This document shows positions 3,242 through 55,623 of a stretch of 64,000 nt of DNA, piece after piece. Source of the stretch: Azolla caroliniana. Taxonomy: Eukaryota; Plantae; Polypodiophyta. Each line of letters begins with the position of its first letter. Position 1 is the stretch's first letter. The position numbers and the translations under genes were made by a program. Under the pieces are notes generated by a model. That model saw nothing but the letters and a program-made list of their open reading frames with translations. It ran no database searches and was not told where the DNA came from. The DNA is taken from positions 21,948,001 through 22,012,000 of the forward strand of contig JBHGNT010000001.1 in NCBI GenBank assembly GCA_043228905.1. The letters run 5' to 3'.

Positions 3242-4084
3242 CGTTTTTCTTGTTCTTCTTCGTTGGTTTTTCCTTCAAGCAAAGTTGACTGCAGAGGTTC
3301 TCAACCCTCGCGCTCTGATACCATGAAAAGAATGGTGTGCGGAAGCAATATAGGAAACCAAACAACAGAAAACGTAGGTTTAATGGAAAGCTTAGGTTTG
3401 CATAGTACGTTGTCGCGAAAATACGACGAGGATACGTGAACGTTGAGGCAAGACCCCGGGGCCTTTGTCTAGAGGATATCAAATTCGTGTATTTATGTAC
3501 TAAGAATTAACCGAAATGAGAAAGATTAACAAATTTCATTAATAAAAGGGAAAGAAAGATTACAATCAATCCCAAGATTGGGATTACAAAAGTTTTATCT
3601 TATGGAGATGATTAGAATAATAGAGTAGAGGAAATAAGAGATTATGATTCTTGAGTGATATGGCTTTGACAAGGAATTTTGGATTTTGAGAGATTGCTTC
3701 CGTATAGAAATTATGGTTTACTTGAGAGATAGCTTCCGTAGGGAAGATTAGGGTTCTTGGCTTCGATAAGATAAGAGAGCTCCCAAAGAAAAGAAAAAAA
3801 ATTTAGATAATATGGAGAGTGAGACCTAGTGTAGGAAAAAAAAAATGGAATAAATATCGAGTTCTCCCTTGATCATAGCCTTTCCACTTTTCGTTGCATG
3901 GCCTCTACTTTTAGTTGCCTAGCTTTTTCTTTTTGTTGCATGTGACTGTCCACATGACCTTTACTTTTTCCATGCACTCCTTCTTTAGTTGCTTGCGTCC
4001 ACATGGCCTTTACTTTAGTTCTCTTCACTTTACTTTAGTTTGTTGCATGATCCAATCTTTCGTCCGTCCGCGTCCAAACTCGTC

Positions 4085-4370
4085 CGGTAGCCGGTTCCAT
4101 TTTGCTTGCCGGTCGGTTCCGGTTCCGATTTTGCTTGCCGGCCGGTTCTGGTTTGCTTGCCGGTTCAGGTTCCGGTTTGCTTGTCGGTTCCGGTTCCAGT
4201 TTTGCTTGCCGACCGGTTCCGGTTTGCTTGCCGGTTGCGGTTGTGGTTTTGCTTGCTGGCCGGTTCCCGATTTGCATACCCGTTCCGGTTCTGGTTTTGC
4301 TTGCCGGCCAGTTTCCAGATTGCATAACGGCCGATTTCCGGATTTGCTTACCGGCCGGTTTCCGGTTTTA
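4085..4370. repeat. Degenerate ~22-27-bp CCGGTT/TTTGCTTG tandem repeat in the G1 LTR (second copy 18562-18830)
   Basis: TTTGCTTGCCGGTTCCGG-like units repeated about 10 times. Confidence 0.85.
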
Positions 4371-4749
4371 GGGAATTTGGCCACCATCATCCATTAAGAC
4401 AAAGTGGCCAAAGTGCTCTTAGCACAAATGAAAAATGAGGGAGCTCAAGGTGTTTATATAGCCAAGGCCTTAACTTTCCTATCTATGTGGGATAGTTCTA
4501 ATTTCTCTATCTAATCAAACTTCATTTTCTCATAACTTGATATGTATTTCTCCATTTTGTATATAGTAAAATACATTTTGAAGCTCTTGAGTATATCCAT
4601 CTTTCTATAGTAAGCTACTAATCTAATCTATAATAATTATTTCATTATTTTTTTACATAGTGTGTGAAGATTCATACGACATTCGCCCCCACCAAACCTG
4701 CACATCCACCGGTATGTGCCAATTTTGGTGAGGATTCATATTTTGTTTA

Positions 4750-6460
4750 CTATACTTTTTCATCGATGCTTAAGACTGAATCGTCAAAAGCTTCGAATCC
4801 AATTTCTATTCTATCTCTTCTCTTGAAGATCTTGATTCTTTTACCGGCAATTGGCAAGGCAAGTGGTGTACCATCCAGTTCTACTAAATGATATGTTGCA
4901 TTATCTTCCACTTTCTTCACCACATATGGCCCAAACCATCGTTGTGAGAATTTTCGAGCCGTACTATGTTGGTTATCTAGGCTACTGTCATAGACTAGCA
5001 CCCAATCTCCTTCAACGATTTTCCTCGGCTGAAGTCGATGTCGTTTATCGAAGTCTTTCTGGTTCTTTAGCCTTGCATTCTTTAGCCGCGCTTTAGCCAC
5101 CTCTACATCTTCCAAATTCCGCTCTAATTGTCGAATCCTCAATGCTAGAAGATCTTCTCTACTTATCTCATCTTGCCATGGCAATGCAAACCATGAAATA
5201 ATACTTTGTTCTATCGGCATTATTGGCTTTTGTCCGAATATGAGCTCTGCCGGCATGTATCCCTTCACCGTGCTATGAGTAGTCCTGTCAACCCATAATG
5301 CAAATGGCAATAGACGTGGCCATTCTCCTATTTTCCCGTGGCAAGCTTTCACTAGAGCCTTCATAATCGGTCCATGTCCACGTTCCACCTTCCCATTTGC
5401 TTCTGGATTATACGCCATGGTAAGAGATAATTTGATTCCCATCCTCGAGAAGAATTCTCTAGCTTCATTGGCGTCCAACTCGCCTCTATCAGCCATTATC
5501 TTGCCGACGCATCCATAACTGCAAATAACATCTTCAAGAAGGAATCGGCATACCGATGATGTCTCTTAGTTCTTAATGCTCGCCCTTCAACTTGATTGGT
5601 AAGATCCTCTCTCGCGAGCACAAGATACTTCATCTGCCATCGTCCCATTGGCATCATCACTATGTCCACCATCCACTTGTAATGCATAGCCAACGGGTAA
5701 GTCGGATGAAGTCCATCTCGATGGCGAATATTCGAAAACATTTGACATTCCTTACATGTTTCCACATAAGCTACTACATCTTTGTAGATGTCCGGCCACC
5801 AATATTTCTCCTTAAGCTTCGCAAACGTAGTACATATTCCTCGATGGCTTGCAAAAACACTATCATGAAATTCGGACATTAGTTTTTGTTGGTCTTCTAG
5901 CTTGCAGACAACTCTCATCGGAGTCCCATTCTTCTTTTTTGCATGCTTCCAAAGAGCTCCATCCTTAAGGAAATACTTGTATGCTTTCTTCCGAATTCGA
6001 TGGAAGTCTTCCGTCAACCATGATTCATCTTTTTGGAGAGAACTTAAGTATTTCCCGATCTCCACGAATTTGCCTTCATAGTCCTCTTCTATGAAAGTAA
6101 TCAACACCCGAGCATAGGAACTTGCAAAGAAATCCAGGCCAACATCATCTTCATCAGAATGTCGATCTTCTTCTCCGTCGTATCTCGCTCGTGATAGCAT
6201 GTCTGCAACGACATTACGCTTCCTAGCTATATGACGGATCTCCGGGTTGAGTGATTTGATATATGCAATTCAACGCAACATGGCAATATCCGGTGTATTA
6301 CAACCAGATATCATACCCAAAATTGGTAGGCAATCTGTCTCAATTATGACTTCTACTCCAATAAGGTAATCACGATCAGATTTGATTGCCGAGACGATCC
6401 CCCATAGCTCCCTCTTCACTTGGGCATACCTCCTTTGCCTGTCACTTAACACTTTCGCGT
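4750..6460 (-). pseudogene. pol: G1 pol 3' part: RNase H C-terminus and integrase
   Basis: ETDCLPILG, HHCC zinc finger (HDSVFASHRG...CKEC), WMVDIV...ADRGE...ERGH, WFGPY; broken by a stop and a frameshift. Confidence 0.9.
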
Positions 6461-6863
6461 TGTCGTGAAGATCCGTCACTACGCGCGGATCGTGAGGCGG
6501 AACCGCCGGGGTTCTGGACCAGAAGGATTTAGAGTCGATACAAGCTTTGGCGAGAAAGTACTTAAGATAGATTGGGAAAGAGAGAAGTTGAGATTAAACG
6601 ATTGATTTGATAACGAATTCCTTCCTCTTAATTTTCATAAAAAAAACCCCGTGTTTTTTCTCCTCCCCCTTCCCTCTTTTATAGATGCTCTCATGCATAT
6701 GATGCATGTGAGGGTACAAGACATGCATAAATTGCATGTTTGCCATTTGGCGCTTAAGTATTACATGTGGTGCATACTAACCATGTCACTCATTTTAGCT
6801 CTCATGTATGAGAATTTACATGTAAAAGTACAATGATAGATATATAATTTTAACTAAATACCA

Positions 6864-6917
6864 TGGCTTAATGGTAAGCCATTTGACTCCTAACTTGGAG
6901 GTGCAAGGTTCGAATCC
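6864..6917 (+). promoter_or_regulatory. tRNA-like Pol III internal promoter (A box and B box) in the G2 LTR; second copy 13688-13741
   Basis: TGGCTTAATGG, then GGTTCGAATCC starting 43 nt later; D-arm-like hairpin ATGGCTTA/TAAGCCAT; T-arm AAGG-TTCGAAT-CCTT. Confidence 0.7.
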
Positions 6918-7534
6918 TTACTTGCCCTCCTTGTATATGTAAATATGTATATATATTTATATATTTATTTTATCTAGTCGCCGGACGCCGGTTCGCCAGA
7001 TACCGTCGCCGGATACCGGTGCCTCGCCGGATGCCGCCGCCGGATTGCCGTCGGATGCCGTCGGATCACCGGCTCCATCGCCGGTCCGGTTTTGGTTGGC
7101 CAAAACCCTTTACGAGTAGCTAGCCACCTCCACTCTTAGTTCAAGTTACCTTGAACTCTCTATGCTCCACACATAGACACAAGGATAATATCTTTGCTCC
7201 ACGTTATATATGATGAGAGCCGTATTTGTCGTGCCTATGTGGGATATCTCACAATTTTCTCTTTTCTTTTCACAAACTTTATACCCTCATATCTTGACAT
7301 TTAGTTGTCCATTTCTCATGTAATAAAGTGCATTCGAAACCTCCATCATTTTGTACTTAGATATTAAAAATGTTATCTTCACAATTATTGTATTACGTGA
7401 TTCATACTTGATTTCGTACGTTTTATGGGATTTTCACACTATTGCCGAAAATCTTCACGACATCCACCCCCACCAAACCGCATGTCCTCCGGTACGTGCC
7501 AAGAAGAGAAGAAGTGAGATTTCGGCTACGATGA

Positions 7535-10500
7535 TCAATTAGATTCCTCCATGTCTTCATTTTCATCCGGCCTATTATGTTCATCGTCGAGGTAATCGAG
7601 GTCAGGATCCTTGTCTTGTCTTTTCTTGAAAAGCTTTACTCTTTTTCCCGCAATGGTTACGGCCAACCTTGATCCGTCTAGTTCCGCAAGGTGGTATGTG
7701 GCATTATCGTTGGCACTTGTCACCACATACGGCCCGAACCATCTTCTTGCGAACTTCCTTGTTGTACTATGTTGATTGTCAAGGGTGCTGTCGTAAACCA
7801 AAACCCAATCCCCTTCTTCAATCTTCTTGGGACGAAGTCGATGCGTGTTGTCGAACCGAACTTTGTTCTTTACTCGGGCTGCCTTCATCATCTTTCGCGC
7901 TTTTTCTAAATCTTCAGGTCTTCTTTCAAGTTGCCTTATCCGCGCCGCTAATAACTCTTCTCGGCTCATCTCGTTCTCCCACGGTATCGCTACCCATGAG
8001 GCGATCGTCCTTTCGATGGGCATAATCGGCTTTTGTCCATACATAAGCTCCGTCGGCATATACCCTGTCACCGAGCTATGTGTCGTTCTATCGGCCCACA
8101 AGGCATAGGGTAATAGTCGTGGCCAATTCCCGACTCGACCATTGCATGCCCGTACGATGGCTTTAACGATAGGTCCATGCCCTCGCTCGATCTTCCCATT
8201 TGCTTCCGGATTGTAGGCAGTCGTGAGGGAGAGCTTCACGCCTAGTCTTTCGAAGAGCTCCGTTGCTTCGTGCGCGTCCAACTCCCCTCGGTCGGCCACT
8301 ATCTTCCCTACACATCCATATTGGCAAACAACATCTTCAAGTAAAAATTTACAAACGGCTGAAGTCGTCTTATTTGTCAAGGCTCGTCCTTCCACTTGAT
8401 TTGTCAAGTCTTCCCTTGCCAGCGCTAAGTACTTCATTTGTCCCACTCCCATTGGCATCGAGACCAGATCCACCATCCATTTGAAGTGAATGGTGAGTGG
8501 GTATGTCGGCTTTAACTCATCACGATGATGTATATTTGAATATATTTGGCAAGTTTCACATGTGCACACGAAATGGAGTACATCTTTGTACATGCTTGGC
8601 CACCAGTACTTCTCCTTCAATTTTTTGAACGTCGCCCATGTTCCTCTATGACCTGCCCAAGCACTCTCGTGGAATTTGGTCATCAGCGTCTCTTGCTCTT
8701 CTCTCTTTACCACCACTCGACGTGGTAATCCTGTCCTTCTTTTTGGATGTCGCCAAAGGAATCCTCCCTTCAAGAAGTATCGATAAGCTTTCTTTCGGAT
8801 TCGTAGGGCCTCCTCCTTTGTCAACGAAGCATCTGTCGTCAATGTTCTTAGGAATCTACCGATGAGTAACCACTCTCCTTCGTACTCGTTCTCATTGAAG
8901 GCGTGGAGGGTTTGCGTGTCCTGGTCTTCCGCCGACAATCGAGCCATCTTGAAGAAGTCGAGGGCGACATCTTCATCTTCCAAAACCATGTTACTTCCAT
9001 TTGAAAATCTTGCCCTCGACAACATGTCAGCCATGGCGTTCTTCTTCCCTACGATGTAACGGATCTCTGGGTTTAAAGACGTGATGTAGGCGATCCACCT
9101 TAGCATAGCAAGATCTGGGGTCGCACATCCCGAGACCATTCCGGGAATTGGGAGACAATCTGTCTCTATTATCACTTCTGACCCGATCAGGTAATCTTTG
9201 TCCGTCTTCACTGCCGACACAATACCCCAAAGTTCCCGCTTGACTTGGGCATATCTTTGTTGTCGTTCGCTGAGAACCTTTGCTCCGAACCAGACGGCAT
9301 ATCGCGCATTATCTTCAACTTCTTCATTGATGACCCACCCGATTCCGGTTGGGCTCGTATCTACGGTCACGTAAATTGGTTTCCCTTCAGCATAGTCAGC
9401 CTTCCTTAGTGCCGGAGCTTCAAGAAGCAGTTTCTTTAATCTTCGCATCGCCTCTGTGTGCTCGTCTCGCCATTCGAACTTTATTCTTTTCTTTAGTAGT
9501 CCATATAACGGTTTGGCGACATGAGCGTAGTGAGGAATCCATATATGATAAAACGCGCACGCTCCAAGGAATCTTCGAACCTCCGTTTGGTTTTCGCATT
9601 CTTCTTTCATATCTTGGATTGCGTTCACTTTGGATGGCGAGGGCTTTCGGCCGTATGCTCCACACAAGTGACCTACCACCAAGATCTCCGGTTGCCCGAA
9701 TGCAGATTTTTCTCCCGAAAATGTCAAATTCGCATCTTCGAGCCTTTGAAGCACCTTCTCGCAATCTTTCATATGATCCACAACGAACTTTCTACAACCT
9801 TCCTTATCTTTCGATTCATCTTTTTGCTCATCTGAACATCCTTTTATCGGAATATCATCCAAGAATGGCATCGTGATGTCCGGAATGCAATCCTTCAAAA
9901 CTTTATTCATGGCATTCACCATATGAGCCACCGAGTTCGTTGCGCCTTGGGGTAAGGTACACATCCGCACAAGCCCGATCGGAGTCCTCATGGTTGTAAT
10001 GTCCTGACTGTCGATCGCCAATTGGAATTGGTCATATCCGGAGTAGAGATCGCCAATGGAGTAGATGGACTGTCCCGCAAATGCTTCGGCAAATTCGTCC
10101 ACGCTCGGACCGATTCCGGCATTTCGAATTGTCACCTTGTTGACGGGTTGAAGATCTTGGATGAATCGCAATGATCCATTCTTCTTCGGCACCGTGAACC
10201 ACCTATTGGACTAAGGAGCATTCGACGGTTCTAGAATTCCCATACTCACCTTCTCCTTTAAGAGCTCGATCAGCTTCGGAAGGTGTGCTCTCAGAACCGG
10301 TATCGGTTTCAAATTCCAAGGCACATGAGGCACCGTGAAGATCACCATTGGCTCTATAACCTTTGGGTCGGCGCATCCGATTTCTCGTGGGAAGAATGTG
10401 AAAGCCTTCCCATGTCTCTCAAGCATATCGCGAAACATTTGCTCCTCTTCAGGGAGAAGGAAATCCTCCTTTCCAACTCGTAGCTTCCCCTTCGTCTCTT

Positions 10501-11029
10501 TGGTGAAGTCATGACCTATCTTCTTCGGATCTCTTAAGCTTGGATCGTTAGCGACTTCCTTCATCTTTTGCCAGCTATCTTCCGGTAGCGGAACCGCAAC
10601 TGGCTTGATCTTCCTATCCACCGTTTTATATTTCGTGTTGATGTCAGTTTCCTTCATCGAGATGCCACGACGGTATTCATCGATGATAGCATACATGTTG
10701 ACGGAGTTAACCGAAATCACGCGTTGGTTGTGAAGATAGCTCAAGTCCACGACGTCCTCGATTTCGCCGATGGTGTCGTTAAATGAGGCTTCTTCCATAA
10801 TATGAGTCACGAACTCTCCTTCTTCTATTATGTTCTCTTCTTTCAGCATCTTCTCGAATTCTTGTATCCGGCGCTTGTGCTTCTTGTCGGGTAGTACTAG
10901 TTTACATGCGCCAGTAGGTGTGACACATGTTGCTTCTCCTTGCAATCCACGCACTCTTCTTTCTTGTGGGGTCTTGTGATTGCTCGGACTATTTGTGCCC
11001 CATGCTTCAATAGTCCGCTCTAAAAATCC
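7535..11029 (-). CDS. pol: G2 pol (RT-RNase H-integrase), entered by a predicted -1 frameshift; one in-frame stop at 10211-10213
   Basis: The 885-aa and 247-aa ORFs share a frame, and that frame is open back to the slippery site. Motifs: GDLYSGYDQF, LPQGATNS, FLDD, VDTSPTGIG, DDE integrase, WFGPY. Confidence 0.9.
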
Positions 11030-13217
11030 GAGGATTCGCCTCCGAGACTATCTCGATTCCTTTCATGATTGGCTCGCACTGTTAGGAATTGGACCGATCT
11101 TTGGTTGTCAAGACTCTTTATTCGTGCGAAGGCTGCTCCATTATCGAACACTTTGGTCTCCATCTGAGATGATGTGATATAAGGTTGCCCTAGCATGACA
11201 GGATGCAACGCCGATTCTTGTACGAAGAAGTGTTGATCCATCTCCACATCCCCGATCGTGACTTCGACATTGGGACAAGCTCCATACAAGTCCTCTGTAG
11301 ACTTTGTTGCCGCGCGAATCTTCCATCCGTGGTTTGTATTGATTGGCCATCTTCCCTTTTTGTAGAAGTCGGTTGACATGAGGTTGATCTCCGAGCCGTG
11401 GTCGATCAAGGCTACCACGGTCTCTTTCTTCTCCCCGATCTTCACCGGCGTCTCCGTTGTCGCTCGTGCCCAATGAGGTCGAGTGTAGTGGCTGTCCACC
11501 ATATCTTCATCGATTTCGTCTCTTGCCATCGTTATGGCATTCGTTTTTGCTTTCTGCAGCTTCTCTTCTTCCTCGTCCGATTGTTGTCTCTTTCTCTTAA
11601 CAAGGTCCACGATCGTGTCATGGAACTCCTTCTTCGTAATGCCAAGCAATTCCCTCAAGGACAAAGTTACGTGGCTATCAAGAACTCGTTCTTCGAGAAT
11701 CTTCTTTAGGTCCGTCGTCTGCTCTATGTCCGACCTTAGCTTATAGGTAGGTATGGTCCTTGTCCTCCGAGTGGGGTCTTCGACACCAACCTTCACGGGC
11801 CGAACCGTTTCTTCAACTTGTATGCTCGGCTCCCCTTTTCGGCTTGATTCTCGTTCCTCCGTTTGTAAAGGTCGACTCGTCTCCGCATCGTCCTTCTTTT
11901 TCGCGTTCCTTGTTTCATGTCTTTTTGATGGCCCTTGCTCTTCTATTCTCTTTCTCTTTTCTTTGACGAACACCTCGTGGTTGTCGCACATCACCTCTGC
12001 GAGTATGGTGTTGTCGTCCACCGGATCCGACCACCCAGTTATGCTTTGCACGTTTCGGTCCGCAAGCTCTACCTCGTTCGATGTGACTTTTCCCTTCTTC
12101 TCATATTCGAGAACGGAAGTCCAAAACTTTGCTCCCGCTCTAGCAGCTTCAGTCTTGTCTTTCTCGACTCTTATTCCGGCCGACGCAGCATAGTGCATCG
12201 CATCCACATGAGTCGCATCGGCATCCTCCATAGATTTCTTCATTCCTCCTCTTCCGAAATTCACCCGTAGGGGTCTTCTAGTCTCGCTTGAGCAGATCAT
12301 GTTGTCCTCTATGTATACGATATTTTGTCGAATCGCCTCTCGAAGGCTCGCACAATCCCTTCTCATGTGGTCCATGCTATCGCACCACACGCATCTAAAG
12401 GGTTCTTTTCCTTTAGGGCCCCGACGATTCATGTTGGCTAGAGTGACCTTCTCGAACTTCTTCGCTAGCTCTTCAATGATGTCGTCATCAATCTTCTTTT
12501 CTTCCACGTTACTTTGTCTTGGCGGCTCAGCTACTTTCGGCGGTCTTGCTTTCTCCGTGGTAGTCGGTCCCGTCAAGTCGGTGTCATCAACCCATTGGCG
12601 ATGCTTGTCGAGCCTATTGCATGCCCGCTTCACCGCGATCCAGTCCGCTACAAGCCCATTTGCTTGGGTATCATCTTCGAGAAGAGTCCCCAACTCCCGT
12701 CTATCCTTTATGTCCACGGCCTTCAAGAAGTACAAAGTCTTGTCCTCTTCAAGCAACACTTGGTCCGTATTGGGGAGACGACTAAACATCTGGTCGAATT
12801 CGTCGTACACCCTCAAGACGCTCATCTTCTTATTCTTCTTCTCTATCCACTTCATCAAGGCATGTCGAGTCATCCTCGTTGAGTCTTCAGTCACGAACTC
12901 CGCTAGTATCGTTTTCTCGAACTCGGACCATGTTGTCTTTCCTTCTTGAAGCTCGATGACGCGTCTTTGGATGTTGTTGGCGACAACTCTCTTGAAGCTT
13001 GCGATTTGACGTGCCTTGGACACGTCCCTTTGATTCATCTCCCTCTTATATGCATCAAGGAACTTCGTAACGTTCCTTCCATCGAATTGGCCCTCGAGCT
13101 CTACGACACGATCGACAACCTTCTCCACGCTCGCGTCGTTGTCCCGAGTCTCATCATTTGCTCGACGATTAGCATCATCCTTTCGAGCTCTCCTGCTTGG
13201 TTGCTTGAGGACGCCAT
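11020..13217 (-). CDS. gag: G2 gag-protease ORF (frameshift near the N-terminus)
   Basis: 702-aa ORF with zinc knuckle CVWCDSMDHMRRDC, protease ALIDHGSE and MLGQPY. The probable ATG at 13217 is out of frame. Confidence 0.88.
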
Positions 13218-14329
13218 CTCCAAGTATTAATCTCGACTTGATCCTTCCTACCGCCTCTTTTACGTCGGGTTCACCACTTAATTCTGTCGTGAAGATCCGT
13301 CACTACGCGCGGATCGTGAGGCGGAACCGCCGGGGTTCTGGACCAGAAGGATTTAGAGTCGATACAAGCTTTGGCGAGAAAGTACTTAAGATAGATTGGG
13401 AAAGAGAGAAGTTGAGATTAAACGATTGATTTGATAACGAATTCCTTCCTCTTAATTTTCATAAAAAAAACCCCGTGTTTTTTCTCCTCCCCCTTCCCTC
13501 TTTTATAGATGCTCTCATGCATATGATGCATGTGAGGGTACAAGACATGCATAAATTGCATGTTTGCCATTTGGCGCTTAAGTATTACATGTGGTGCATG
13601 CTAACCATGTCACTCATTTTAGCTCTCATGTATGAGAATTTACATGTAAAAGTACAATGATAGATATATAATTTTAACTAAATACAATGGCTTAATGGTA
13701 AGCCATTTGACTCCTAACTTGGAGGTGCAAGGTTCGAATCCTTACTTGCCCTCCTTGTATATGTAAATATGTATATATATTTATATATTTATTTTATCTA
13801 GTCGCCGGACGCCGGTTCGCCGGATGCCACCGCCGGATGCCGGTGCCGCCGCCGGATGTCGTCGGTTACCGGTGCCTCGCCGGATACCGGTGCCGCATGC
13901 CGCCGCCGGATTGCCGTCGGATGCCGTCGGATCACCGGCTCCATCGCCGGTCCGGTTTTGGTTGGCCAAAACCCTTTACGAGTAGCTAGCCACCTCCACT
14001 CTTAGTTCAAGTTACCTTGAACTCTCTATGCTCCACACATAGACACAAAGATAATATCTTTGGCTCCACCTTATATATGATGAGAGCCGTATTTGTCGTG
14101 CCTATGTGGGGTATCTCACAATTTTCTCTTTTCTTTTCACAAACTTTATACCCTCATATCTTGACATTTAGTTGTCCATTTCTCGTCTAATAAAGTGCAT
14201 TCGAAACCTCCATCATTTTGTACTTAGATATTAAAAATGTTATCTTCACAATTATCGTATTACGTGATTCATACTCGATTTCGTACGTTTTATGGGATTT
14301 TCACACTATTGCCGAAAATCTTCACGACA

Positions 14330-16077
14330 GCGCCAAACCGAATTGCATATTGGTTGCAATCTTCATCTTCTTGGTTGATAACCCATCCAATTCCGATTGG
14401 ACTAGTATCCACAGTCACGAAAATGGGCTTGCCGTATGAATAGTCCGTTTTCCATAATGCAGGTGCCTCCATCAATAATTTCTTCAGCCTTCGGATGGCG
14501 ATTGTATGCTCGCTCGTCCATTCGAACATCCGCTTCTTCTTTAGTAGACCATATAATGGCTCAGCAATGTGGGCGTAGTGTGGAATCCAAATATGATAAA
14601 ACGCGCATGCTCCAAGGAATCTTCGAACCTCCGTTTGGGTTACACATTCTTGTTTCATGTCTTGGATTGCATTCACCTTGGATGGCGAAGGCTTCCGACC
14701 GTATGCTCCACACAAGTGACCTACCACCAGGATCTTCAGTTGCCCAAATGCGGATATTTCTCCCGAAAATGTCAAATTCGCATCTTCGAGCCTTTAGAGC
14801 ACCTTCTCGCAATCTTTCATATGATCCATGACGAACTTTCTACATCCATCCTTATCTTTTGATTCATCCTTCTCTTCATCCGAACATCCTTTTATCGGAA
14901 TATCATCTAAGAATGGCATCGTGATATCCGGGATGCAATCCTTCAAGACCTTGTTCATGGCATTCACCATATGAGCCACCGAGTTCGTTGCGCCTTGAGG
15001 TAAGGTTCACATCCGCACCAACCCGATTGGAGTTCTCATGGTTGTAATGTCACGACTGTTGACCGCCAACTGGAATTGATCGTAGCCAGAGTAAAGATCG
15101 CCGATGGAGTAGATGGACCGGCCCGCAAACACCTCGGCAAATTCATCCACACTCGGACCGATTCCAGCATTCCGAATTGTCACCTTGTTGACGGGTTGAA
15201 GATCTTGAATGAATCGTAACGATCCATTCTTCTTTGGCACCGTGAACCACCTATTAGAATAAGGAGCATTTGACGGTTCTAGAATTCCCATCCTCACCTT
15301 CTCCTTTAAGAGCTCGATCAGCTTCGGTAGGTGTGCTCTCGGAACCGGTATCGGTTTCAAATTCCAAGGCACATGCGGCACCGTGAAGATCACCATCGGT
15401 TCTACCGTCCTTGGATTAGCACACCCGATTTCTTGTGGGAAAAACGCGAAAGCCTTCCCATGTCTTTCAATCATTCCACGAAACATTCGCTCCTCTTCAG
15501 GGAGGAGGAAATCCTCCCTTCCAACTCGTAGCTTTCCCTTCGTCTCTTCAGTGAAGACGTGACCAATTGTATTTGGGTTCCTTAAGCTTGGATCTTTTGC
15601 AACTTCCTTCATCTTTTGCTAGCTATCTTCCGGTAGCGGAACTGCAACTGGCTTGATCTTCCTATCCACGGTTTTATATTTTGTGTTGACTTCGACTTCC
15701 TCTATCAAGATGCCTCGATGATATTCATCGATGATAGTATACATGTTGACGGAGTTAACCGAAATCACATGTTGATGGTGAGGATAGCTCAAATCCACGA
15801 CTTCCTCGATTTCGCCGATGGTGTCGTTAAATGAGGCTTCCTCCAGAATATATGATACGAATTCTTCTTCTTCGATTATGATTTCTTCTTTTAGCACCTC
15901 CTCGAAGTCTTGTATCTGACACTTTTCCTTCTTGTTGAGTAGTCTAAGTTTGCATGCGTCGCCAGGTGTGACGCATGTTGCTTCTCCTTGAAATCCACGC
16001 ACTTTGCTTCCTTGTGGGGACTTATGATTGCTCGGACTATTTGTGCTCCATGCTTCAATAGTCTGCTTTAAAAATCC
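14330..16077 (-). pseudogene. pol: G1 pol 5' part: linker, RT, RNase H N-terminus
   Basis: PYSNRWFTVPKKNGSLRFIQDLQ, MPFLDD, VRRFLGAC, VDTSPIGIG, with in-frame stops. Confidence 0.9.
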
Positions 16078-18098
16078 AAGGATTCGCCTCCAAGGCTATC
16101 TCGGTTCCTTTCATGATTAGCTCGAACCGTTAGGAATTGAACGGATCTTTTACTATCAAGACTCTTGACGCGCGCAAAGGCTGCTCCATTATCGAACACC
16201 TTGGTCTCCATCCGGGACGATGTTATATATGGTTGTCCTAGGATGACGGGATGTGAAGCCGAGTCTTGCACGAAGAAGTGTTGATCAATCTCTACATCCC
16301 TGATCGTGACTTTAACGGTCTCTTTCTTCTCCCCGATCTTCACCGGTGTCTCCGTTGTCGCTCTTGCCCAATGAGTCCGCGAGTAATGGCTATCCGCCAC
16401 TACTTCTTCTTCTTCCTCCTCTTCCGATCTTGCCATGGTTATGGCACTTGTTTTCACCTCCTCTTCATCAGATTGTTGCCGCTTCCTTTTAATAAGGTCC
16501 ACGATAGTATCATGGAACTCCTTCTTCGCGATCCCAAGTAGCTCTCTCAAGGTAAGGTCGACATGACTATCTAAAACCTTCTCCTCAAGGACCTTCCGCA
16601 AGTTAGTTGTTTGTTCTATATCCGACCTTAGCTTGTAAGTCGGTGCCGCTCGTTCTTTTCCTTTGTTCGTTGATTCTTCGACTTCCATCCGAGCAGGTTG
16701 GCTCGATCCACCGGGCTTCATGTTTGTTTCACCAATCTCTTTTCTTGGGATAGGTTGGGGTGGCCCTTCTTTCCCTCCGTTCCTCGTGTTAGGTCGCTTT
16801 GATGTGCCATCTTTTTCACCGGTTCTCTTCCTCTTCTCTTCGACAAGGGCTTCATAGGTGTCACACACAACCTCCGCAAAGCTTGTGTTTTCGTCAATTG
16901 GATCTGACCATCCGGTTGCTCGTCGCACGTTTCGGTCAGCAAGTTTTAGATCCTCCGAATTGATTTTGCCTTTTTCTTCGCACTCGAAGACCGTTGGCCA
17001 AAACCCAGCTCCTGGCTTGATCATTTTAAGATTCTCTTTTCCAACTCGTATCCCAGCCGAAGCGGCATAGTGCATAGCCTCCACATGCCTTGCATCTTCT
17101 TCTTCTACAATCTTTTTCAGCCCACCTCTTCCGAAGTTCACTCGTAGTGGCTTCCGGGTCTCGCTTGAGTGAATCATGTTGCCGTCCAAATAGACGACAT
17201 TCTTGCGGATTGCATCTTGCAAGTCAGCACATTCCCTTCGTGAGTGTTCAAAGCTATTGCACCACACACATCTATACGCTTCTTTTCCCTTGGGCCCGCG
17301 CCGACCTAAGTTGGCTAGCGATACCGCTTCAAACTTCTTGGAGAGCTCTTCGATTATAGACTCCTCCATTTCTTTCTTGTCGAAACTGTTGATCGGCTTA
17401 CTAGGCTCAATCATCGTAGGTGCCTTCTTCCACAATTGTGGATTCTCGACCTCAGCTTCCTCTTGCCATTGTCACCGCTTATCAAAACGGCTGCAAGCCT
17501 TCTTCACCGCCGCCCAATCCGCTACCAAACCATTTGGTTGTGTTTCATCCTCCAAGAAACTACCCAATTCTCGTCGATCTTTCGCATCCATTGCCTTTAG
17601 GAATAGTAAGACTTTATCTCCGTCGAGAACTCGTTGCTCGACACTCGGAAGTCGGTTGTACTTCTGGTCGAATTCGGCATAAATTCCCGATGCACACAAA
17701 TTCTTCCCTTTCTTCTCGATCCAATTCATTAATGTATGCCAAGTCATCCGCGATGCGTCTTCAAGCATGTATTCAGTGAGAAGAGCCCTTTCGAACTCCG
17801 CCAAGGTTGCATGCTCATTTTGGATCTCCATCACGCACTCACGGATCCCGGGTTCTACCACACGCTTAAAGCTTGAAATTTGTTTTGGATCATGGACATC
17901 TCTTTGTTGCATCTCATTCCGGTACGTAGCAGGGAAATTTGTGATGTTCTTCCCACCGAATCTTCCAACTGTCTCCACAGTTCGGTCAACAGCTTTGTCG
18001 ACTAAAGCCTCCCGATCTCTCTCTTTCAGAATGAATTCGACGACGGACACCATGCCTTTCGTCAATTCTTCTCCTTGAGTTCCACTTGTCGAAGCCAT
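16068..18098 (-). pseudogene. gag: G1 gag-protease; one stop and a ~150-bp in-frame deletion removing the protease active site
   Basis: 208-aa and 455-aa ORFs in one frame; CVWCNSFEHSRREC; the KKETV|KVTI junction lacks the segment containing ALIDHGSE that is present in G2. Confidence 0.85.
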
Positions 18099-18129
18099 CT
18101 TCGTACTTGATATCCTCCTACTGCCTCAT

Positions 18130-18147
18130 TTCACGTCGGGTTCACCA
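18130..18147 (-). promoter_or_regulatory. Primer-binding site complementary to the tRNA-Trp 3' end
   Basis: TGGTGAACCCGACGTGAA is the reverse complement of the plant tRNA-Trp end TTCACGTCGGGTTCACCA; the same site occurs at 13259-13276 and 48980-48997. Confidence 0.85.
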
Positions 18148-20743
18148 AAGATGTCACGAAAATACGACGAGGATACGTGAACGTTGAGGCAAGACCCCGG
18201 GGCCTTTGTCTAGAGGATATCAAATTCGTGTATTTATGTACTAAGAATTAACCGAAATGAGAAAGATTAACAAATTTCATTAAGAAAAGGGAAAGAAAGA
18301 TTACAATCAATCCCAAGATTGGGATTACAAAAGTTTTATCTTATGGAGATGATTAGAATAATAGATTAGAGGAAATAAGAGATTATGATTCTTGAGTGAT
18401 ATGGCTTTGACAAGGAATTTTGGATTTTGAGAGATTGCTTCCGTATAGAAATTATGGTTTACTTGAGAGATAGCTTCCGTAGGGAAGATTAGGGTTCTTG
18501 GCTTCGATAAGATAAGAGAGCTCCCAAAGAAAAGAAAAAAAATTTAGATAATATGGAGAGTGATTTTGCTTGCCGGCCGGTTCTGGTTTGCTTGCCGGTT
18601 CAGGTTCCGATTTGCTTGTCGGTTCCGGTTCCAGTTTTGCTTGCCGACCGGTTCCGGTTTGCTTGCCGGTTGCGGTTGTGGTTTTGCTTGCTGGCCGGTT
18701 CCCGATTTGCATACCCGTTCCGGTTCTGGTTTTGCTTGCCGGCCGGTTCCGGTTCCGATTTGCTTGCCGGCCAGTTTCCAGATTGCATAACGGCCGATTT
18801 CCGGATTTGCTTACCGGCCGGTTTCCGGTTTTAGGGAATTTGGCCACCATCATCCATTAAGACAAAGTGGCCAAAGTGCTCTTAGCACAAATGAAAAATG
18901 AGGGAGCTCAAGGTGTTTATATAGCCAGGGCCTTAACTTTCCTATCTATGTGGGATAATTCTAATTTCTCTATCTAATCAAACTTCATTTTCTCATAACT
19001 TGATATGTATTTCTCCATTTTGTATATAGTAAAATACATTTTGAAGCTCTTGAGTATATCCATCTTTCTATAGTAAGCTACTAATCTAATCTATAATAAT
19101 TATTTCATTATTTTTTTACATAGTGTGTGAAGATTCACACGACAACGCACGGGAGAGAGAGAGAGAGAGAGAGTAAAACACAAGAACTTAATTCAAAAAT
19201 AATACTTGATCTGTAAATCATGTGTGTTCAATGGACACTTTTATACAAGTCCTTTTCGGACTGACAGAAGTACTGATAGTACCTCAATGCTCATTGAGGA
19301 GCCCCTACACTAACTCCCAAATATATTCCTTGCGGAATATCTTTCCGATGGCCTCCCGGTTTCCGCACCGATCCGGCCTTCCTACACACCGGTTTGCGTA
19401 CCAGTTTCCAACGGATCCGGTGCTCAGCTTGCTCAGCCGATCCGGCCGATGTTGAGCTTGTCTCTCAACAACCTCCAAGATCAAAGAAATCTTCGACGCT
19501 TTTGCCTCTGTCAACGTGAACGTCGAGGAAGATGAAATGGTGCAGGTTTGTCTTGGTGGGTTAGCGTCAAAGTTCAGAGTGTTCCGAATGGCGGTCTGTA
19601 TGAGGGAGAATACGCCTTCGTTTTTCGAGCTTCAGTCAATGTTGCTCGTAGAGGAAAATCATGTGGGTGCATTGACGAGTACGCACGCCCACTAGAAGAT
19701 GCTATACACGGAGGGAGATAGGCCCCATGGTCGTGGCGGACAAGGCGGATTGGCGCATAATGGAGTCAGCCGAAAAAGAGCAGAATCGATGGCATAATCG
19801 AAATGCCGAAAGCAATTCTGAACCCTCCGGAAGCAGGGGGAGTGATAGAGGTGTTGGAAGCCGGCAAGATAAGGCCGCAACGGAATGTTGGTACGGTGGA
19901 AAGAAAGGCCACAAGAAAAGCGAGTGCTGGTAGAAACAAGCCGATTCGGACAAAGCCGGACCGAGTGGGAGAGACGCAGGAAGGCGTCAAAAGTTGCACT
20001 ACGATGAGGACTCCGAACGAGTTGGAAATGGATCGGGCCCTGCCTTCATAATGAAACAGAAGGCCAATTCAATGGCCGTGAACACCTCAAAATCGAGCGA
20101 GGTGTGGTATGTTGATTTCGGAATGTTAAATCATATGACGAGTCACGAGGAATGGTTCTCGTACTTGGAGAAGCCGGAAAAGCAAGGGGTAGTCGAAATG
20201 GGAGATGACACCCTGCATACCATCGAACATGTCAGTGAAGTTCCCCTTAGCCATGTCAGGCAGAAAGGGAAACTCTTGAACGTGCTACACGTTCCGACAA
20301 TAACGAAGAACCTGGTGTCAGTTGGTCAGATCGTCAACCAAGGGATGCAGGTTCGATTCACGCATCTAGGGTGTTTCATAGAAGAGGAGGGCAAAGTAAT
20401 CGCGCAAGGGCACCGTGAAGGGAGGATGTGTATCCTTGAAGCCAACAATGTGGGCACCGCTATGTTTGTGAAAGGTCGAGTCGGACATTGACCTGTGGCA
20501 AAAGCGGTTCTGCCATATTAACTTCCTGCGCCTTCGTGAAATGCAGACGAAGAACATTGTGTTCGGCTTGCCAAAATTTCGAGGCCGGAATGGCCAAGTT
20601 TGCAAAGCCTGCCAAATGGGAAAATAACACCAAATTCCATTCCACTAGATTTGATCCATTCGGATGTGTGGGGTCCGGCACAGAATGCGAGCCTCGGTGG
20701 AAGCCGTTACTTTGTAACCTTCATCGACAACTTCACTTGGCAC

Positions 20744-32979: not shown

Positions 32980-33276
32980 ATGATGATAACAGATGATATA
33001 TTATGTGAAGAGTAAGTACAAAATAGCTATGCGGCTTAAAACTGGCGTTGAACCAATTTGGTTCGAAATAATGCCTTGTGCCTCTTTTTATAGTGTTCCC
33101 AGGAATAGTCTTGAAGCTTCTAGAATTTTCCAGAGATATCCGGAATATACAATAATTTTCTATAGTAAAACTTAAATGAAAATAATATCCTACGTGTTAC
33201 AATAGATAATGTAATGGTCAAGAGCTTGAGCCATATAACATAAGGTTATGGGTTTGAGTCTTGCCAAATCATGACA
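32980..33276 (-). mobile_element. Partial Tcn1-like chromovirus LTR, cut by the element B insertion
   Basis: Reverse complement starts TGTCATGATTTGGCAAGACTC and aligns with the LTRs at 38980 and 63628. Confidence 0.85.
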
Positions 33277-38979: not shown

Positions 38980-39484
38980 TGTCATGATATGGCAAGACTC
39001 GAACCCATGACCTTATGCTACATGGGTCGAGCTCTTGACCATTAGACCATACATTGTAATACGTAAAATATTATTTTCATTTATGTTTTATTATAGAAAA
39101 TTGATGTATATTCTAGATTTCTCTGGAACATTCTAGAAACTTCAGGAGTACTCCTGAGAACACTATATTATTTCGAACCAAATCGATTCAACGCTAGTCT
39201 TAAGCCTCCTAGCTACTATTGTATACTCTCTTCACATAATATATATCATTTATCATCATCCTCTCTCACCCTTTCTCTCTCTCTATCTCTCTATCTCTCT
39301 ATCTCTCTCTCTCTCTCACTCTTTCCTTCTCTCGAGAGTTCTACATCTCTCTTAGTACTAATCCTCATCTTTTAGTACTAATTCCTTCTCTGTCTTAGTA
39401 CTGATCCTAACTGTTTGAACCGATTTCCCACCCTCTGTCTCCCTCCCTTCATACTAATCTCTTATTCCTCTTTCTTCTCATCCC

Positions 39485-40642: not shown

Positions 40643-43600
40643 GTCCAGCCAAAATAGGAGTCGTTTGGTTGTACATCCCTAGATCTGTGCAGCCCATTAG
40701 TGGTTCCATTCCCTCTAAGCAAGTTAGCAATGCGTTCGTAGCCCAAGTAACAGTTCGTACTAAAAGTACCCCTCCAGTACATGTCTTAGCACTTCTAGCT
40801 TCCAGAGCTAATTTTTGCTTCATGGATAGGAACTTTGCCCAAGCTCATCAGATATCTCTTAGAAAACTCCCGTGTCTAGCCTCTGTAGTAGTCATTGATG
40901 GTTGTCCCATTGCTTCTGGAAATATCATAGAAGAGTAAGAGCCCGTTAATATTGTCCTAGATCATCTAGCATGTGTAGTATCATTTAATATAATTAGCAT
41001 CCTAGAACACCCCATTATTTTAGGATTACCATGGTTTGAATTACATAACCTAGACATAGATTGGAGAACAAGAGAAATCCGGTATCGAAAAACCCGAGGG
41101 TCTACTCATGAGATTGCAACCATTTCGCTACATCAGTTGCGAGGAAGAAATGTTTCTCTTCGCAATATCAGTAAAGCCCTCAGACACCATTAAAGAGGAG
41201 TCCACCATTCAACTTCCAAAGAAGTATCATCATTATGCTGATGTGTTCGATAAAGTACAAGCCAATACGTTGTCGTAGTGTATTCCATACACTACGTGAA
41301 AATAATATAAAATAACCGATTGAATAAATATGAAGAAAAAAGAAGAAGAAAATATCAAAATAAGCATTTCATGCATAGGGCAAGATTTGAACCTTGCACC
41401 TCCATATTAATAATATAATGTCTTACCATTGCACTAGCATTTCATTAGTGTTAAAAGGTAGATGTTCCACATAGAAAGGTTAGTTCACCTTGGATAAACT
41501 TTAGTTAAAAGAAAACGCATGCTAAAAGAAAAAACTACGCAGGCACATCTAGCGTGCATGAATGCTATAGTTGATAAAAAACGCACAAGTTAGAAAAAGC
41601 ATGATCACTTTAGATAAAGCATATAGTCTATCTATAGGAAAAGCATGGAGTCTATAGTTAGAGAAGAAAAAGCATGGATTGCTAAGACTCCCTCATCACT
41701 ATATAAGGATGGGGAGCACAATGTAGTGTGTGTGGAATATTTGGAAATTGAATATATTTCCTAAAACACCAATTAATATAATATATTCGTGGGATTCACG
41801 AATTTGTGATCAAAATTGTCTCTTACTATCTAAATATTGATTAAATACACTAAACTCATGGGATTCATGAGATTCATAACTTACCTATCTTTCTAATAAT
41901 CTATCCATAACTATAAACTTGTCTCAAATTCTTCCTCCTCCTAGTCCAAAACCTTAGTGGTTCCCATCCGACTCACGCAACGATGCGGAGCCAAAAGGCA
42001 CGACAACGCTTCCTCACCATCGACCATATGATTGCCCCATCGATTTACAACCGGGGAAAGAGCCACCATGGGGACCAATCTACAATTTGTCACCAACTGA
42101 GCTAGAAGTCCTCCAAGCCTATATAGAGGAGAATTTGGAAAATGGTTTCATTCGGCATTAGAAATCTCCAGCCGGTGCACCCATTTTCTTCGTCAAGAAA
42201 AAGGATGGATCACTTCATCTCGTTGTAGATTACTGTGAGTTGAATAAGGTTACAATCAGAAATAGGTATGCACTTCCCCTTATCTCAAGTCTTTTAGAAT
42301 GGATCAATGGTGCAAGGTTCTTCACGAAAATCGACTTACGTGGAGCCTATAACCTTGTACGGATCTGACCATCGACCATATGATTGCCCCATCGATTTAC
42401 AACCGGGGAAAGAGCCACCATGGGGACCGATCTACAATTTGTCACCAACCGAGCTAGAAGTCATGCAAGCCTATATAGAGGAGAATTTGCAAAATGGTTT
42501 CATTCGGCATTCAAAATCTCCATCCGGCGCACCCATTTTCTTCGTCAAGAAAAAGGATGGATCTCAAGTCTCGTTGTAGATTACGTGGAGCCTATAACCT
42601 CGTACGGATCTGACCAGGAGATGAATGGAAGACCGCATTTTGCACCAAATATGGGCACTTCGAGTATACGGTCATGCCGTTCGGCCTCACTAATGCGCCA
42701 ACAGTCTTCTAGCACATGGCAAATGATATATTCCGAGATCTCTTGGATGTTTTTTTGATCATCTATTTGGATGATCTACTGGTTTATTCGAAGACCCAAG
42801 AAGAGCATGATTCTCATGTACTGTTAGTACGAAAACAACTTCGAGGACATGGTCTTTATGCAAAGTTGGAAAAATGTAGTTTTGGGTGCAACCAGGTGGA
42901 ATTTCTGGGCTATGTCATTTCTTCAGAAGGCATCTCCATGGACCAAGCTAAGGTCAAAACTGTGGTAGAGTGGCAAACTCCGTGTTCGGTGTGAGATGTG
43001 CAATACTTTTTTGGCTTTGCCAATTTTTACTAGAAGTTCATACAGGATTACTCAAAGTTCGTTCTACCTCTCACACAACTTACTAGGAAGGGACAATCGT
43101 TCGTTTGGTCTGAAGAAGCGGACATGGGTTTCGAGAGTCTTAAAAAGACATTTACATCGGCTCCAATTCTAGCTCATGTTGATCCAGAAAAACTATTCAT
43201 TATCGAAGCAGACACATCAGATTTCGCATTGGGGAGTATTTTGTAACAACGGGGTAATGATGAGAAGCTACATCCTGTGGTTTTTCACTCACGCAAGTTT
43301 GACGCCGCCAAAATCAACTACAAAATTCATGATAAGGAGCTATTGGCAATAGTGGACTCTTTTACGCAATGAAAGCATTTTCTAGAGGGATCCTCTCATC
43401 AAGTCATCGTATTCAATGACCACAAAAACCTTGCCTACTTTCAGGACGCTCGTGTGTTAACTCGACGTCAAGCTCGGTGGGCCCACTTCTTCACGCGTTT
43501 CGACTTCAAAATTACATATTGTCCAGGGAAGCACCAAGGGAAGGCAGATGCATTATCACGGCGTTCGTACCTAGCACCGCGTCCCGGCGAGCCAACTTTT

Positions 43601-48000: not shown

Positions 48001-49013
48001 GCAAACTCAATGAAGCAGTCCACCCTGAAATCGGATGAGGTATGGTACGTTGACTCCATTGCGTCAAACCACATGACGTTGTCGTAGTGTAATTCGTACA
48101 CTACGTGAAAAATTACATTTTTGGTTTCTCCGGATAAGACATGGAGTAGCCGGTGAGAATCGGAAGAAGGAACCGGTAAGGACCGAAACCGGCAAGGAGA
48201 CCCGGCAAGAGCCGGATGAAGAAAGCCGGTGAGAGTCGGTGAGAAACGGACGAAGAGATCGGTAAGGAGGTCCCGGTAAGAACCGGACAAAGAAAACTAT
48301 CAAGCACCGGATGAAGCAGAACCGGAAAGAGCCGGATGAAGAAGGCCGGTGAGAGTCTCTCACCAGATGAAGAGACGTATTTGTAAATAGAAGAAAGTAT
48401 AAAAATATATATATTACATGCATAGGGCAAGATTCGAACCTTGCACCTCCATGTTAATAATGTTAAGCCTTATCATTATAGTAGGGTATTATGAATTTTA
48501 AAGTTATACTAAACTTTATTCCATGTAAAATTTCTAGACATGCATGGTACAAAAGTTATTCATGCATAGACACTCGAGTTAAAAAGAAAAGATGAGATAG
48601 AAAGCTAATCATGCACATGCAGTGTGCATGAAAACTAAAGATAGAAAAAGCATGATGCTTGCATGTGATAAACTTAGACTCTTCCAACACTATATAAGGA
48701 AGAGAGAAAGCTGTATAGAGGTTGTTGATTATTTTACAAGGGTTGATTAATATAAGATAATCGTGCGATTCACGAATTTGCTAACTATTCTTTCTCTCTT
48801 AATTTGATTACTCACTAATACACTATACTCGTGGGATTCACGAGTTTTTCATATCTTTCTTTCTTACAATATATTTCATATTCTTAATTGCCATAGAATT
48901 TTCATTCCTCCTAGTCCAAAACCCCAGCGGTTCCCACTCGACTCACGCAACGATCCGGAGCCATAAGGCACGACACAAGTGGTGAACCCGACGTGAACAC
49001 AGGTGGCAAGGAG

Positions 49014-54100: not shown

Positions 54101-54671
54101 ACAAGCACCGGTAATGCCGACGGAAATCGCAATCGCGACATGGACAATGCTACCATGGAAGGAAGAGATGAGCCGAGAAGAACTACTAGCGGTCCGGATA
54201 CGACAACTGGAGGGAAGACCGGAAGACATAGCGGAAGCAATACGCCGACAACAAGAAGCGCGATTCCGGAATAAAAGCCAGTTCGACACAAAGCACCGAC
54301 TACGACCGCGGAAGATTGAAGAAGGAGATTGGGTCATTGTCTATGACAGTAGTTTGGATCATCAACATACAACGATGCGGATGTTCGCGAAAAGGTGGTT
54401 CGGACCATACGAGGTTCGGAAAGTTTTCGACAACGGAACTTACCGACTATGCGAGTTAGATGGAACAATGCTACGAGTGCCTATAGCCGGGAAACGGGTG
54501 AAGATTTTCAAGAAGCGGACCGATGAAGAACCCTATGTGATCCTAGACAAGACCAACCAGAAGGAGCAATCAAACGAAGATCGCGGTGATGTGGAAAGCG
54601 AAGAAAGTAGATTAGAACTCATCGTCGACTTAAGGGGAGAATCGGAGGAAGCTTCAGATGAAGGTGAATAG
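51155..54671 (+). pseudogene. pol: G3 pol (RT-RNase H-integrase)
   Basis: DLYSGYDQF, MPFLDD, VDTSPTGIG, WMVDIV, ADRGE, WFGPY; stops and frameshifts. Confidence 0.9.
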
Positions 54672-55623
54672 CAAGCATTGGGGACTTCGGCACATACCAG
54701 AGGATGTGGGGGTTCGGAGGGGGCGAGTGTCGTAGTGTAATTCATACACTACGTGAAAAATTACATTTTTGGTCTCTCTGGATAGGACATGGAGTACCCA
54801 GTGAGAATCGGAAGAAGGAACCGGTAAGGACCGAAACCGGCAAGGAGACCCGGCAAGAGCCCGATGAAGAAGGCCGGTGAGAGTTGGTGAGAAACGGACG
54901 AAGAGATCGGTAAGGAGGTCCCGGTAAGAACCGGACAAAGAAAACTATCAAGCACCGGATGAAGCAGAACCGGAAAGAGCCGGATGAAGAAGGTCGGTGA
55001 GAGTCTCTCACCAGATGAAGAGACGTATTTGTAAATAGAAGAAAGTATAAAAATATATATATTACATGCATAGGGCAAGATTCGAACCTTGCACCTCCAT
55101 GTTAATAATGTTAAACCTTATCATTATAGTAGGGTATTATGAATTTTAAAGTTATACTAAACTTTATTCCATGTAAAATTTCTAGACATGCATGGTACAA
55201 AAGTTATTCATGCATAGACACTCGAGTTAAAAAGAAAAGATGAGGTAAAAAGCTAATCATGCACATGCAGTGTGCATGAAAACTAAAGATAGAAAAAGCA
55301 TGATGCTTGCATGTGATAAACTTAGACTCTTCCAACACTATATAAGGAAGAGAGAAAGATGTATAGAGGTTGTTGATTATTTTACAAGGGTTGATTAATA
55401 TAAGATAATCGTGCGATTCACGAATTTGCTAACTATTCTTTCTCTCTTAATTTGATTACTCACTAATACACTATACTCGTGGGATTCACGAGTTTTTCAT
55501 ATCTTTCTTTCTTACAATATATTTCATATTCTTAATTGCCTTAGATTTTTCATTCCTCCTAGTCCAAAACCCCAGCGGTTCCCACCCAACTCACGCAACG
55601 ATCCGGAGCCGTAAGGCACGACA

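Follow-up and report, generated by a model that had tools for sequence, protein, structure and literature searches.

Antisense tRNA-derived A and B boxes in the LTRs of gag-pol Gypsy retrotransposons of Azolla caroliniana

Units derived from tRNA, in which an A box and a B box are found at tRNA spacing, are present in the LTRs of several Gypsy retrotransposon families of Azolla caroliniana. All units face outward from the promoter block, and their carriers are gag-pol elements of 5.7-7.9 kb with a TATA box. We put the probability at roughly 0.5 that the boxes bind TFIIIC and act in cis, keeping the Pol II promoter of the LTR open in heterochromatin. Such boxes had originally been noticed in two Gypsy elements, G2 and G3, and in a solo LTR; new here are the units beyond G2 and G3, which occur in a chromovirus family (family C) and in three further Phygy families (F100, F258 and F117).

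tRNA-derived units in the analysed window

The analysed stretch of DNA, 64,000 nucleotides long and referred to as the window, contains three Phygy-type Gypsy elements (G1, G2 and G3), a solo LTR and chromovirus LTRs of family C (Table 1). G2 is nested within G1, and its two LTRs differ by 13 substitutions over 1002 aligned bases. The predicted boxes of the G2 3′ LTR were recovered, with 43 nt from the start of the A box to the start of the B box, and the second G2 LTR repeats both boxes 6,824 nt further on (A box 13688, B box 13731). An exact 20-nt core is identical at all five places (6897, 13721, 41403-41384, 48450-48431 and 55098-55079), confirming that the solo LTR and G3 share it with G2. 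All five units are antisense, as had been claimed, because G2 lies on the minus strand and G3 and the solo LTR lie on the plus strand. In the A box of G3, G19 is replaced by A, and both G3 copies score below 19 bits. The weight-matrix scan of G1, in which no module had been seen originally, likewise gave nothing at or above 14 bits. Three units of the window that had been overlooked are located in chromovirus LTRs and are unlike the G2 and G3 units in sequence.

Table 1 Elements, LTRs, units and boxes of the window. Positions are those of the window.
Feature	Position	Strand	Details
G1 Phygy-type element, unit-free comparison	3411..19144	-	weight-matrix scan
G2 Phygy-type Gypsy element	6461..14329	-	gag, RT, RNase H, integrase; tRNA-Trp primer site; target site GCGT/GCGC
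G2 3′ LTR	6461..7462	-	repeat comparison
TATA-like box, G2 LTR	6676..6684	-	180 nt from A box; CATGCA repeats intervene
tRNA-derived unit, U3 of G2 3′ LTR, antisense	6857..6928	+	tRNA positions 1-73 by register; 33.8 bits
A box TGGCTTAATGG of G2 3′ LTR unit	6864-6874	+	sequence
B box GGTTCGAATCC of G2 3′ LTR unit	6907-6917	+	sequence
First T4 run past B box, G2 3′ LTR	6968..6971	+	sequence
G2 5′ LTR	13285..14329	-	unit 13681-13752 (+)
Family C unit	33200..33276	+	own LTR on minus strand from 33276
Family C unit, 5′ end of chromovirus LTR, antisense	38980..39056	-	B box 39005-38995; 29.2 bits
Solo LTR, G3 group	41271..42005	+	antisense unit: A box 41436-41426, B box 41393-41383
G3 Phygy-type element	48080..55623	+	LTRs 48080-48975, 54728-55623
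G3 antisense units	B boxes 48440-48430, 55088-55078		A box degraded
Family C unit, start of chromovirus 3′ LTR	63628..63704	-	chromodomain ORF 63180-63635 immediately precedes

The first T4 run past the B box would terminate Pol III transcription from the G2 unit after about 115 nt, and the TATA-like box presumably acts as the Pol II promoter of this LTR. The units in U3 are flanked by a CCGG-rich repeat and by a block of CATGCA repeats, which terminates in the TATA-like box. Clusters of CATGCA/TGCATG repeats precede the TATA box at 6660-6850 of the window as well as in the equivalent blocks of other Phygy LTRs; we take them to resemble RY elements, the targets of B3 factors. The G2 LTR at 6461-7462 is a mosaic with two TATA-like boxes, in which the first 270 nt are G1-like, the unit is G3-like and the CATGCA-TATA block is like that of F100 and F258. 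Likeness between G1 and G2 is 84% in RT and only 65-66% in gag and integrase, a contrast that suggests recombination.

Classification of the carrier elements

Phygy elements are defined by a tRNA-Trp primer, NCGN target sites, absence of a chromodomain and a size of 7.7-10 kb (Neumann et al. 2019, PMC6317226, supplement 3). The primer sites of G1-G3 are complementary to the 3′ end of host tRNA-Trp, the 4-bp NCGN target-site duplications read GCGT/GCGC, ACGT/ACAT, ACGT/ACGC and ACGT/ACGC with one CpG-type difference each, and the chromodomain is absent from the three Phygy-type integrase ORFs. G2 measures 7,869 bp and G3, slightly below the published range, 7,544 bp. By primer site, target sites, missing chromodomain and size, G1-G3 fit Phygy, and the first three of these agree with the label Phygy-like that they had been given. 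Phygy insertions are found at CpG-centred 4-mers, chiefly ACGT and GCGT: R-CG-Y or its decay forms occur at 28 of 43 G3 5′ flanks compared with 1 of 44 for family C. NCGN target sites have already been published for Phygy (PMC6317226). Many Phygy copies consist of two LTRs with just 2-3 kb of internal sequence, representing recurrent internal deletions (L256, L257, L258, L259, L260, L265).

The integrase of family C carries a chromodomain (PF00385, E 3.9e-14), and the RTs of family C and G2 are 27% identical. Family C is self-priming, with 11 nt (offset by one) past the 5′ LTR being complementary to the LTR from position 217. A self-priming site instead of a tRNA primer defines Tcn1-like chromoviruses (Novikova et al. 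2010, PMC2864245), a group that family C fits by its chromodomain and self-priming site; the LTR layout described here thus recurs in an element without any tRNA primer. In unrooted trees of 7 elements, the unit carriers do not form one clade, and the topology differs between domains.

Genomic distribution and orientation of the units

Exact matches to the 20-nt core number 1,637 genome-wide, compared with 0 for the reversed control. LTRs of the G2 or G3 type hold 28 of the first 30 core matches and the Phygy LTR F61 holds the other 2, all 30 being antisense. A sample of 1.4 Mb out of 523 Mb, with loci mostly chosen by unit or LTR patterns, yielded 184 distinct matches of at least 18 bits, and all G-type (111/111) and C-type (38/38) matches among them are antisense within LTRs. 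No poly(A) tail or target-site duplication of their own was seen by eye around the inspected units. A free tRNA-derived SINE was rejected on the grounds that 149 of 149 G- and C-type matches in this 1.4 Mb of 523 Mb lie within LTRs, in agreement with the original reading.

When LTRs were anchored on the primer site and not on the unit, 33 of 50 G2-type and 41 of 50 G3-type LTRs were of full length. The unit is mostly gone from 2 of these 33 and 1 of these 41, one more being partial, and an extra deletion of a G2 unit was noted by eye (L155). Both deletions that are comparable with a partner LTR (n=2) are confined to one LTR. The commonest Phygy type is unit-free: 26 of the first 30 of 5,601 matches to the tRNA-Trp primer site have no unit, while the linker types bearing units comprise 431 and 1,157 of the 5,601 matches. 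The unit is also absent from 8 repeated segments beside Copia coding sequence, which are presumed to be LTRs.

The LTR of family C starts with an antisense unit that differs in sequence from the G-type. A 27-mer that runs across the LTR end and the B box is matched exactly at 2,103 genomic sites; with LTRs anchored at the opposite end, 25 of 30 loci from two subfamilies have an intact LTR start, and the unit is present in 25 of 25. A third version of the unit occupies the equivalent place in the solo LTR of a family C-like group (L184, L359), which is probably kin to family C judging from LTR likeness. Units also occur on both sides of the TATA box. In F100 (Phygy, L255; LTRs 99.9% identical), U3 contains two antisense units and one sense unit follows past the TATA box, F258 (Phygy, L258) carries a complete antisense unit, a partial one and one sense unit, and F117 (Phygy) has one of each, the sense copy being decayed. 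The start of the antisense units precedes the TATA box by 115-263 nt (8 of 10 LTRs were measurable). In the three Phygy families with sense units, these are located 76-127 nt downstream of it and, by eye, run into T runs inside U5.

tRNA origin of the units

Weight matrices were built from host tRNA genes and not from LTR units. The 33.8 bits of the G2 unit compare with a median of 30.6 (range 6.9-35.9) for 67 host tRNA sequences. Its best alignment is with tRNA-Arg(TCT) at a score of 62, whereas the maximum of 300 shuffles is 45, and a CCT anticodon loop lies in register within the unit. The claim of tRNA derivation is upheld by both the host-trained score and the alignment. Across 464 kb (the window and 400 kb picked blind), 16 matches of at least 19 bits were found versus 0-1 in 5 local shuffles; LTRs account for 9 of them and a free two-headed element for 5, the other 2 being weak and unassigned. 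Taken by itself, the B box does not clearly exceed chance expectation within the window, with 8 matches at up to one mismatch against a shuffled mean of 3.25, a count of 8 being obtained by 1 of 100 shuffles. The G3 copy of the window scores 47 against host tRNA, equal to its own shuffled value of 47. The best-matching host tRNA varies from unit to unit among 15 units, and the host set of 71 distinct sequences from 14 isotypes limits any assignment of a parent isotype. A pattern search of the genome for a host tRNA-Arg(CCT) gene gave none.

ARAGORN reported no tRNA in the window, the sole window match to Rfam RF00005 is the solo copy at 21.9 bits, under the cut-off of 29, and the highest Rfam score obtained is 27.4 bits for the F258 unit, so that none exceeds the threshold. 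In 18 copies, Watson-Crick pairs account for 25% of the acceptor stem, 17% of the anticodon stem and 44% of the T stem, as counted on ungapped rows (MAFFT alignment A2 had a gap in the T arm). The acceptor and anticodon stems of the G2 unit are broken; of the two hairpins originally seen in it, the T arm stands with 4 of 5 pairs, whereas the D-arm hairpin is off the tRNA register by one base. Based on ARAGORN, Rfam and the stem-pair counts, the cloverleaf is lost and a functional tRNA gene can be ruled out.

Conservation of the boxes

Across 18 natural copies of different subfamilies, the 10 box-critical positions, which correspond to the textbook tRNA promoter consensus, are conserved at 0.83 and the rest of the body at 0.58 (P=0.0006 on resampling of positions, the copies being treated as unrelated). 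Positions 44-48, which belong to neither box, equal the boxes in conservation (0.87). In LTRs anchored off the unit, values for the anticodon-arm part, A box and B box are 0.71 versus 0.89 and 0.78 in G2, 0.67 versus 0.80 and 0.87 in G3, and 0.84 versus 0.92 and 0.90 in family C, so that the B box is kept better than the A box in G3. Among 11 unit types, which were chosen by their boxes, the identity of the B box averages 0.78 and that of the spacer 0.45 (shuffled 0.38), and the distance from GG to the B box is constant within about 1 nt.

Measured along whole LTRs, as the original prediction had proposed, conservation of the B box is about average in G2 (0.78 vs 0.78 for the rest of the LTR) and family C (0.90 vs 0.91). 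Its percentile among 11-nt LTR windows is the 41st in G2 and the 45th in family C; in G3 it is the 82nd. The CpG-decay count, designed as a selection test, gave no support, the B box not being spared: genome-wide, 463 CpG changes are box-breaking versus 332 tolerated, with 1,305 sites intact. This box-breaking excess mostly reflects decay after insertion. Substitutions within the boxes occur in two amplified G3 subfamilies, one with A in place of G19 and the other with A in place of G52.

At four-fold RT sites G2 and G3 share 39 of 100, which is near saturation. When LTRs of the G2 group are compared with those of the G3 group, the highest-scoring local alignment falls on the unit in 6 of 6 pairs, ahead of the U5 end, while the CATGCA-TATA blocks of the two groups fail to align. 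G2, F100 and F258 have the CATGCA-TATA block in common and the A box at an equal place; the stretch shared by the three starts at the A box, and behind the A box only the box and the spacing agree. Since the G2 LTR is a mosaic, the sharing of the unit by G2 and G3 may stem from segment exchange and not from long selection, and such exchange can account for part of it. The selection that had been proposed is therefore supported between subfamilies and families (0.83 vs 0.58; 6 of 6 LTR pairs), but not cleanly within families and not by the CpG count. Taken as sequence evidence, these patterns suggest that the units are partly under constraint.

Possible roles of the units

tRNA genes and B boxes serve as chromatin barriers in yeasts and mammals (tDNA, ETC/COC and SINE boundaries). 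These barriers resemble the present units in that TFIIIC boxes adjoin a Pol II promoter, possibly without an RNA product; they are, however, host loci, whereas the boxes described here travel in the LTR of an element. By analogy with the yeast and mammalian barriers, tRNA-derived boxes placed beside the Pol II promoter and facing outward would bind TFIIIC, and TFIIIC would load TFIIIB on the side facing the promoter. The predicted outcome is that nucleosomes are depleted and silencing is hindered at the LTR promoter, a short antisense Pol III transcript, if any, being a by-product. In favour of this explanation, the cloverleaf is lost and the spacer drifts while box residues and box spacing are kept, and the antisense placement in U3 recurs in two Gypsy lineages. 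TFIIIC acting in cis is favoured because boxes and spacing persist whereas folds differ between families, because the B box of G3 outlasts its A box and because some families bracket the promoter. The unit would be an accessory and not a requirement, since the commonest Phygy type is without it. Against this explanation, a plain barrier needs no fixed outward orientation, and G1 as well as 26 of the first 30 tRNA-Trp-primed elements do without a unit. Further points against it are the average conservation of the B box within G2 and family C, the CpG count, the equally conserved positions 44-48, the altered boxes of amplified G3 subfamilies and the mosaic G2 LTR. To our knowledge, barrier action of TFIIIC in plants is unsettled. 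A more tentative proposal is that two unrelated lineages converged on outward boxes bracketing the Pol II promoter, TFIIIC being a portable anti-silencing barrier, and that the LTR copies, in their thousands, seed heterochromatin with TFIIIC sites far in excess of genuine tRNA genes.

Among other explanations, the units may be passengers useless to the element, i.e. tRNA or SINE heads captured a few times, copied and swapped by LTR recombination, although we regard this as rather unlikely. The mosaic G2 LTR, box conservation at the LTR average within G2 and family C, CpG decay with 463 breaking versus 332 tolerated changes and the unit-free state of G1 and of the most numerous Phygy family all agree with it, and donors would be available given that the genome also contains a free element bearing two tRNA-like heads. 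It fits poorly with the persistence of box residues and spacing while stems and spacer decay, with the shared side and outward facing of the units in both unrelated lineages and on either flank of the TATA box, and with the location of 149 of 149 G- and C-type matches in LTRs, where no poly(A) or own target-site duplication was seen by eye. Improbable, in our view, is a role for an RNA product, either a Pol III RNA of 100-120 nt antisense to U3 that acts as a decoy or gives small RNAs, or Pol III traffic that dampens the Pol II promoter. The fixed orientation would suit such a role, and foamy viruses do make Pol III RNAs from U3 (PMC3993851). A T4 run follows up to 61 nt past the B box in 62 of 79 copies, but T runs are frequent anyway in AT-rich LTRs, and the unit of family C ends at the LTR edge, which leaves the 5′ LTR without a terminator of its own. 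A single long hairpin is the fold of the family C unit (z -4.85), and the G2 unit, when folded together with its tail, reaches z -5.56, partly due to an AT-rich palindrome, yet folds are unlike across families, and those of G3 (z -1.31) and the solo copy (z -0.78) are no better than shuffles. The A box, required for transcription start, is moreover degraded in an amplified G3 subfamily.

Two explanations based on the life cycle of the elements were rejected. Split primer sites and pairing with tRNA during strand transfer are known from Ty3 and HIV-1, and the antisense unit makes genomic RNA complementary to tRNA, the G2 unit scoring 52 against host tRNA-Trp. Pairing of the unit with the primer tRNA in either of these ways is nevertheless very improbable: tRNA-Trp is the best match for 0 of 15 units, the G2 unit prefers tRNA-Arg(TCT) at 62, the unit has G52 where tRNA-Trp has T, and family C uses no tRNA primer but primes itself and still carries the unit. 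The units could also be landing pads, with an integrase that seeks TFIIIB/TFIIIC sites and copies that draw nested insertions. Ty3 and TRE5-A insert at tRNA genes, and the elements of the window are heavily nested. However, a foreign unit lies within 400 nt at 9 of 267 outer junctions where about 4 are expected, the 9 distances are scattered over 71-373 nt with none directly upstream of a start site, and Phygy sites obey NCGN. With no fixed distance among the 267 junctions, we consider self-targeting to have hardly any chance of being correct.

If the boxes work as TFIIIC sites, they would constitute a cis counter-silencing device made from host tRNA signals on full-length heterochromatic retrotransposons, and the genome would hold several thousand such sites (at least 1,637 + 463 + 2,103 exact motif matches). 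Since sister families differ in whether they carry the unit, they offer a natural comparison. Even as passengers, the units matter to tRNA and SINE annotation.

Relation to known systems

Helenus/TRIMp3, which is treated together with Cassandra and Ajax, has tRNA-like LTR sequence in which boxes A and B are conserved, the tRNA is nonfunctional and several origins are probable, according to the main text of Kojima 2024 (PMC10886601). Helenus elements are non-coding and 311-1263 bp long, and their Pol III promoter is thought to yield genomic RNA (PMC10886601), whereas the carriers here are gag-pol elements of 5.7-7.9 kb with a TATA box and the main unit antisense in U3. Because of this antisense position, the main unit cannot make genomic RNA, and the unit as a source of genomic RNA was excluded. 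The Helenus paper argues that autonomous partners need Pol II, and its screen retained only TRIMs below 1 kb while further Repbase LTRs also match tRNA (PMC10886601). Autonomous LTR cases may thus sit undescribed in Repbase.

Foamy-virus LTR microRNA cassettes are likewise Pol III elements in U3 of an autonomous retroelement, situated in a dispensable region; they produce hairpin microRNAs against host genes from non-canonical boxes (as described in PMC3993851), whereas the units here are full-length tRNA relics, antisense and without a conserved fold. cqgypsy_1 of Culex also has tRNA sequence in its Gypsy LTR region, in this case a dimer of tRNA sequences that end in CCA, located at the 5′ LTR/primer site of a single element (as described in PMC3286476). 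The present units differ from it in being conserved, in both LTRs and in many families. Where the accounts of Phygy (PMC6317226) and Tcn1 (PMC2864245) deal with tRNA, they treat it as primer and not as LTR content. The main text of PMC10886601 contains neither "Moss" nor "Physcomit", and that of PMC7466625, which reports RLG2 of P. patens to be ABA-induced, does not contain "tRNA". The original statement that no description was known needs to be narrowed, given LTR tRNA in Helenus (PMC10886601) and Pol III elements in foamy U3 (PMC3993851); in the literature covered, which comprised neither Repbase notes nor the Helenus supplements, no account was found of outward tRNA boxes in moss or autonomous plant LTRs.

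Other tRNA-like sequences in the genome

At G000:C14 about 16916300-16927600 (L005-L015, L312, L313), nearly identical G2 LTR units, at least 11 in number, follow one another in tandem every 939 bp, and a tRNA-like unit is present in each. The free element mentioned above is about 230 bp long, SINE-like and outside LTRs, with two facing tRNA-like heads within CT microsatellites. It was found at L347:1574-1806, L347:4425-4656 and L359 about 3190-3380, and is not closely like the LTR units; a related head lies at L306:5050. Lone A/B-box matches of 18-20 bits in other repeats (L169:2953, L271:104 and L288:1060) may represent more families. On G000:C5, C8 and C16, genes for tRNA-Trp, tRNA-Lys and tRNA-Ile form large tandem clusters that include numerous variant copies.
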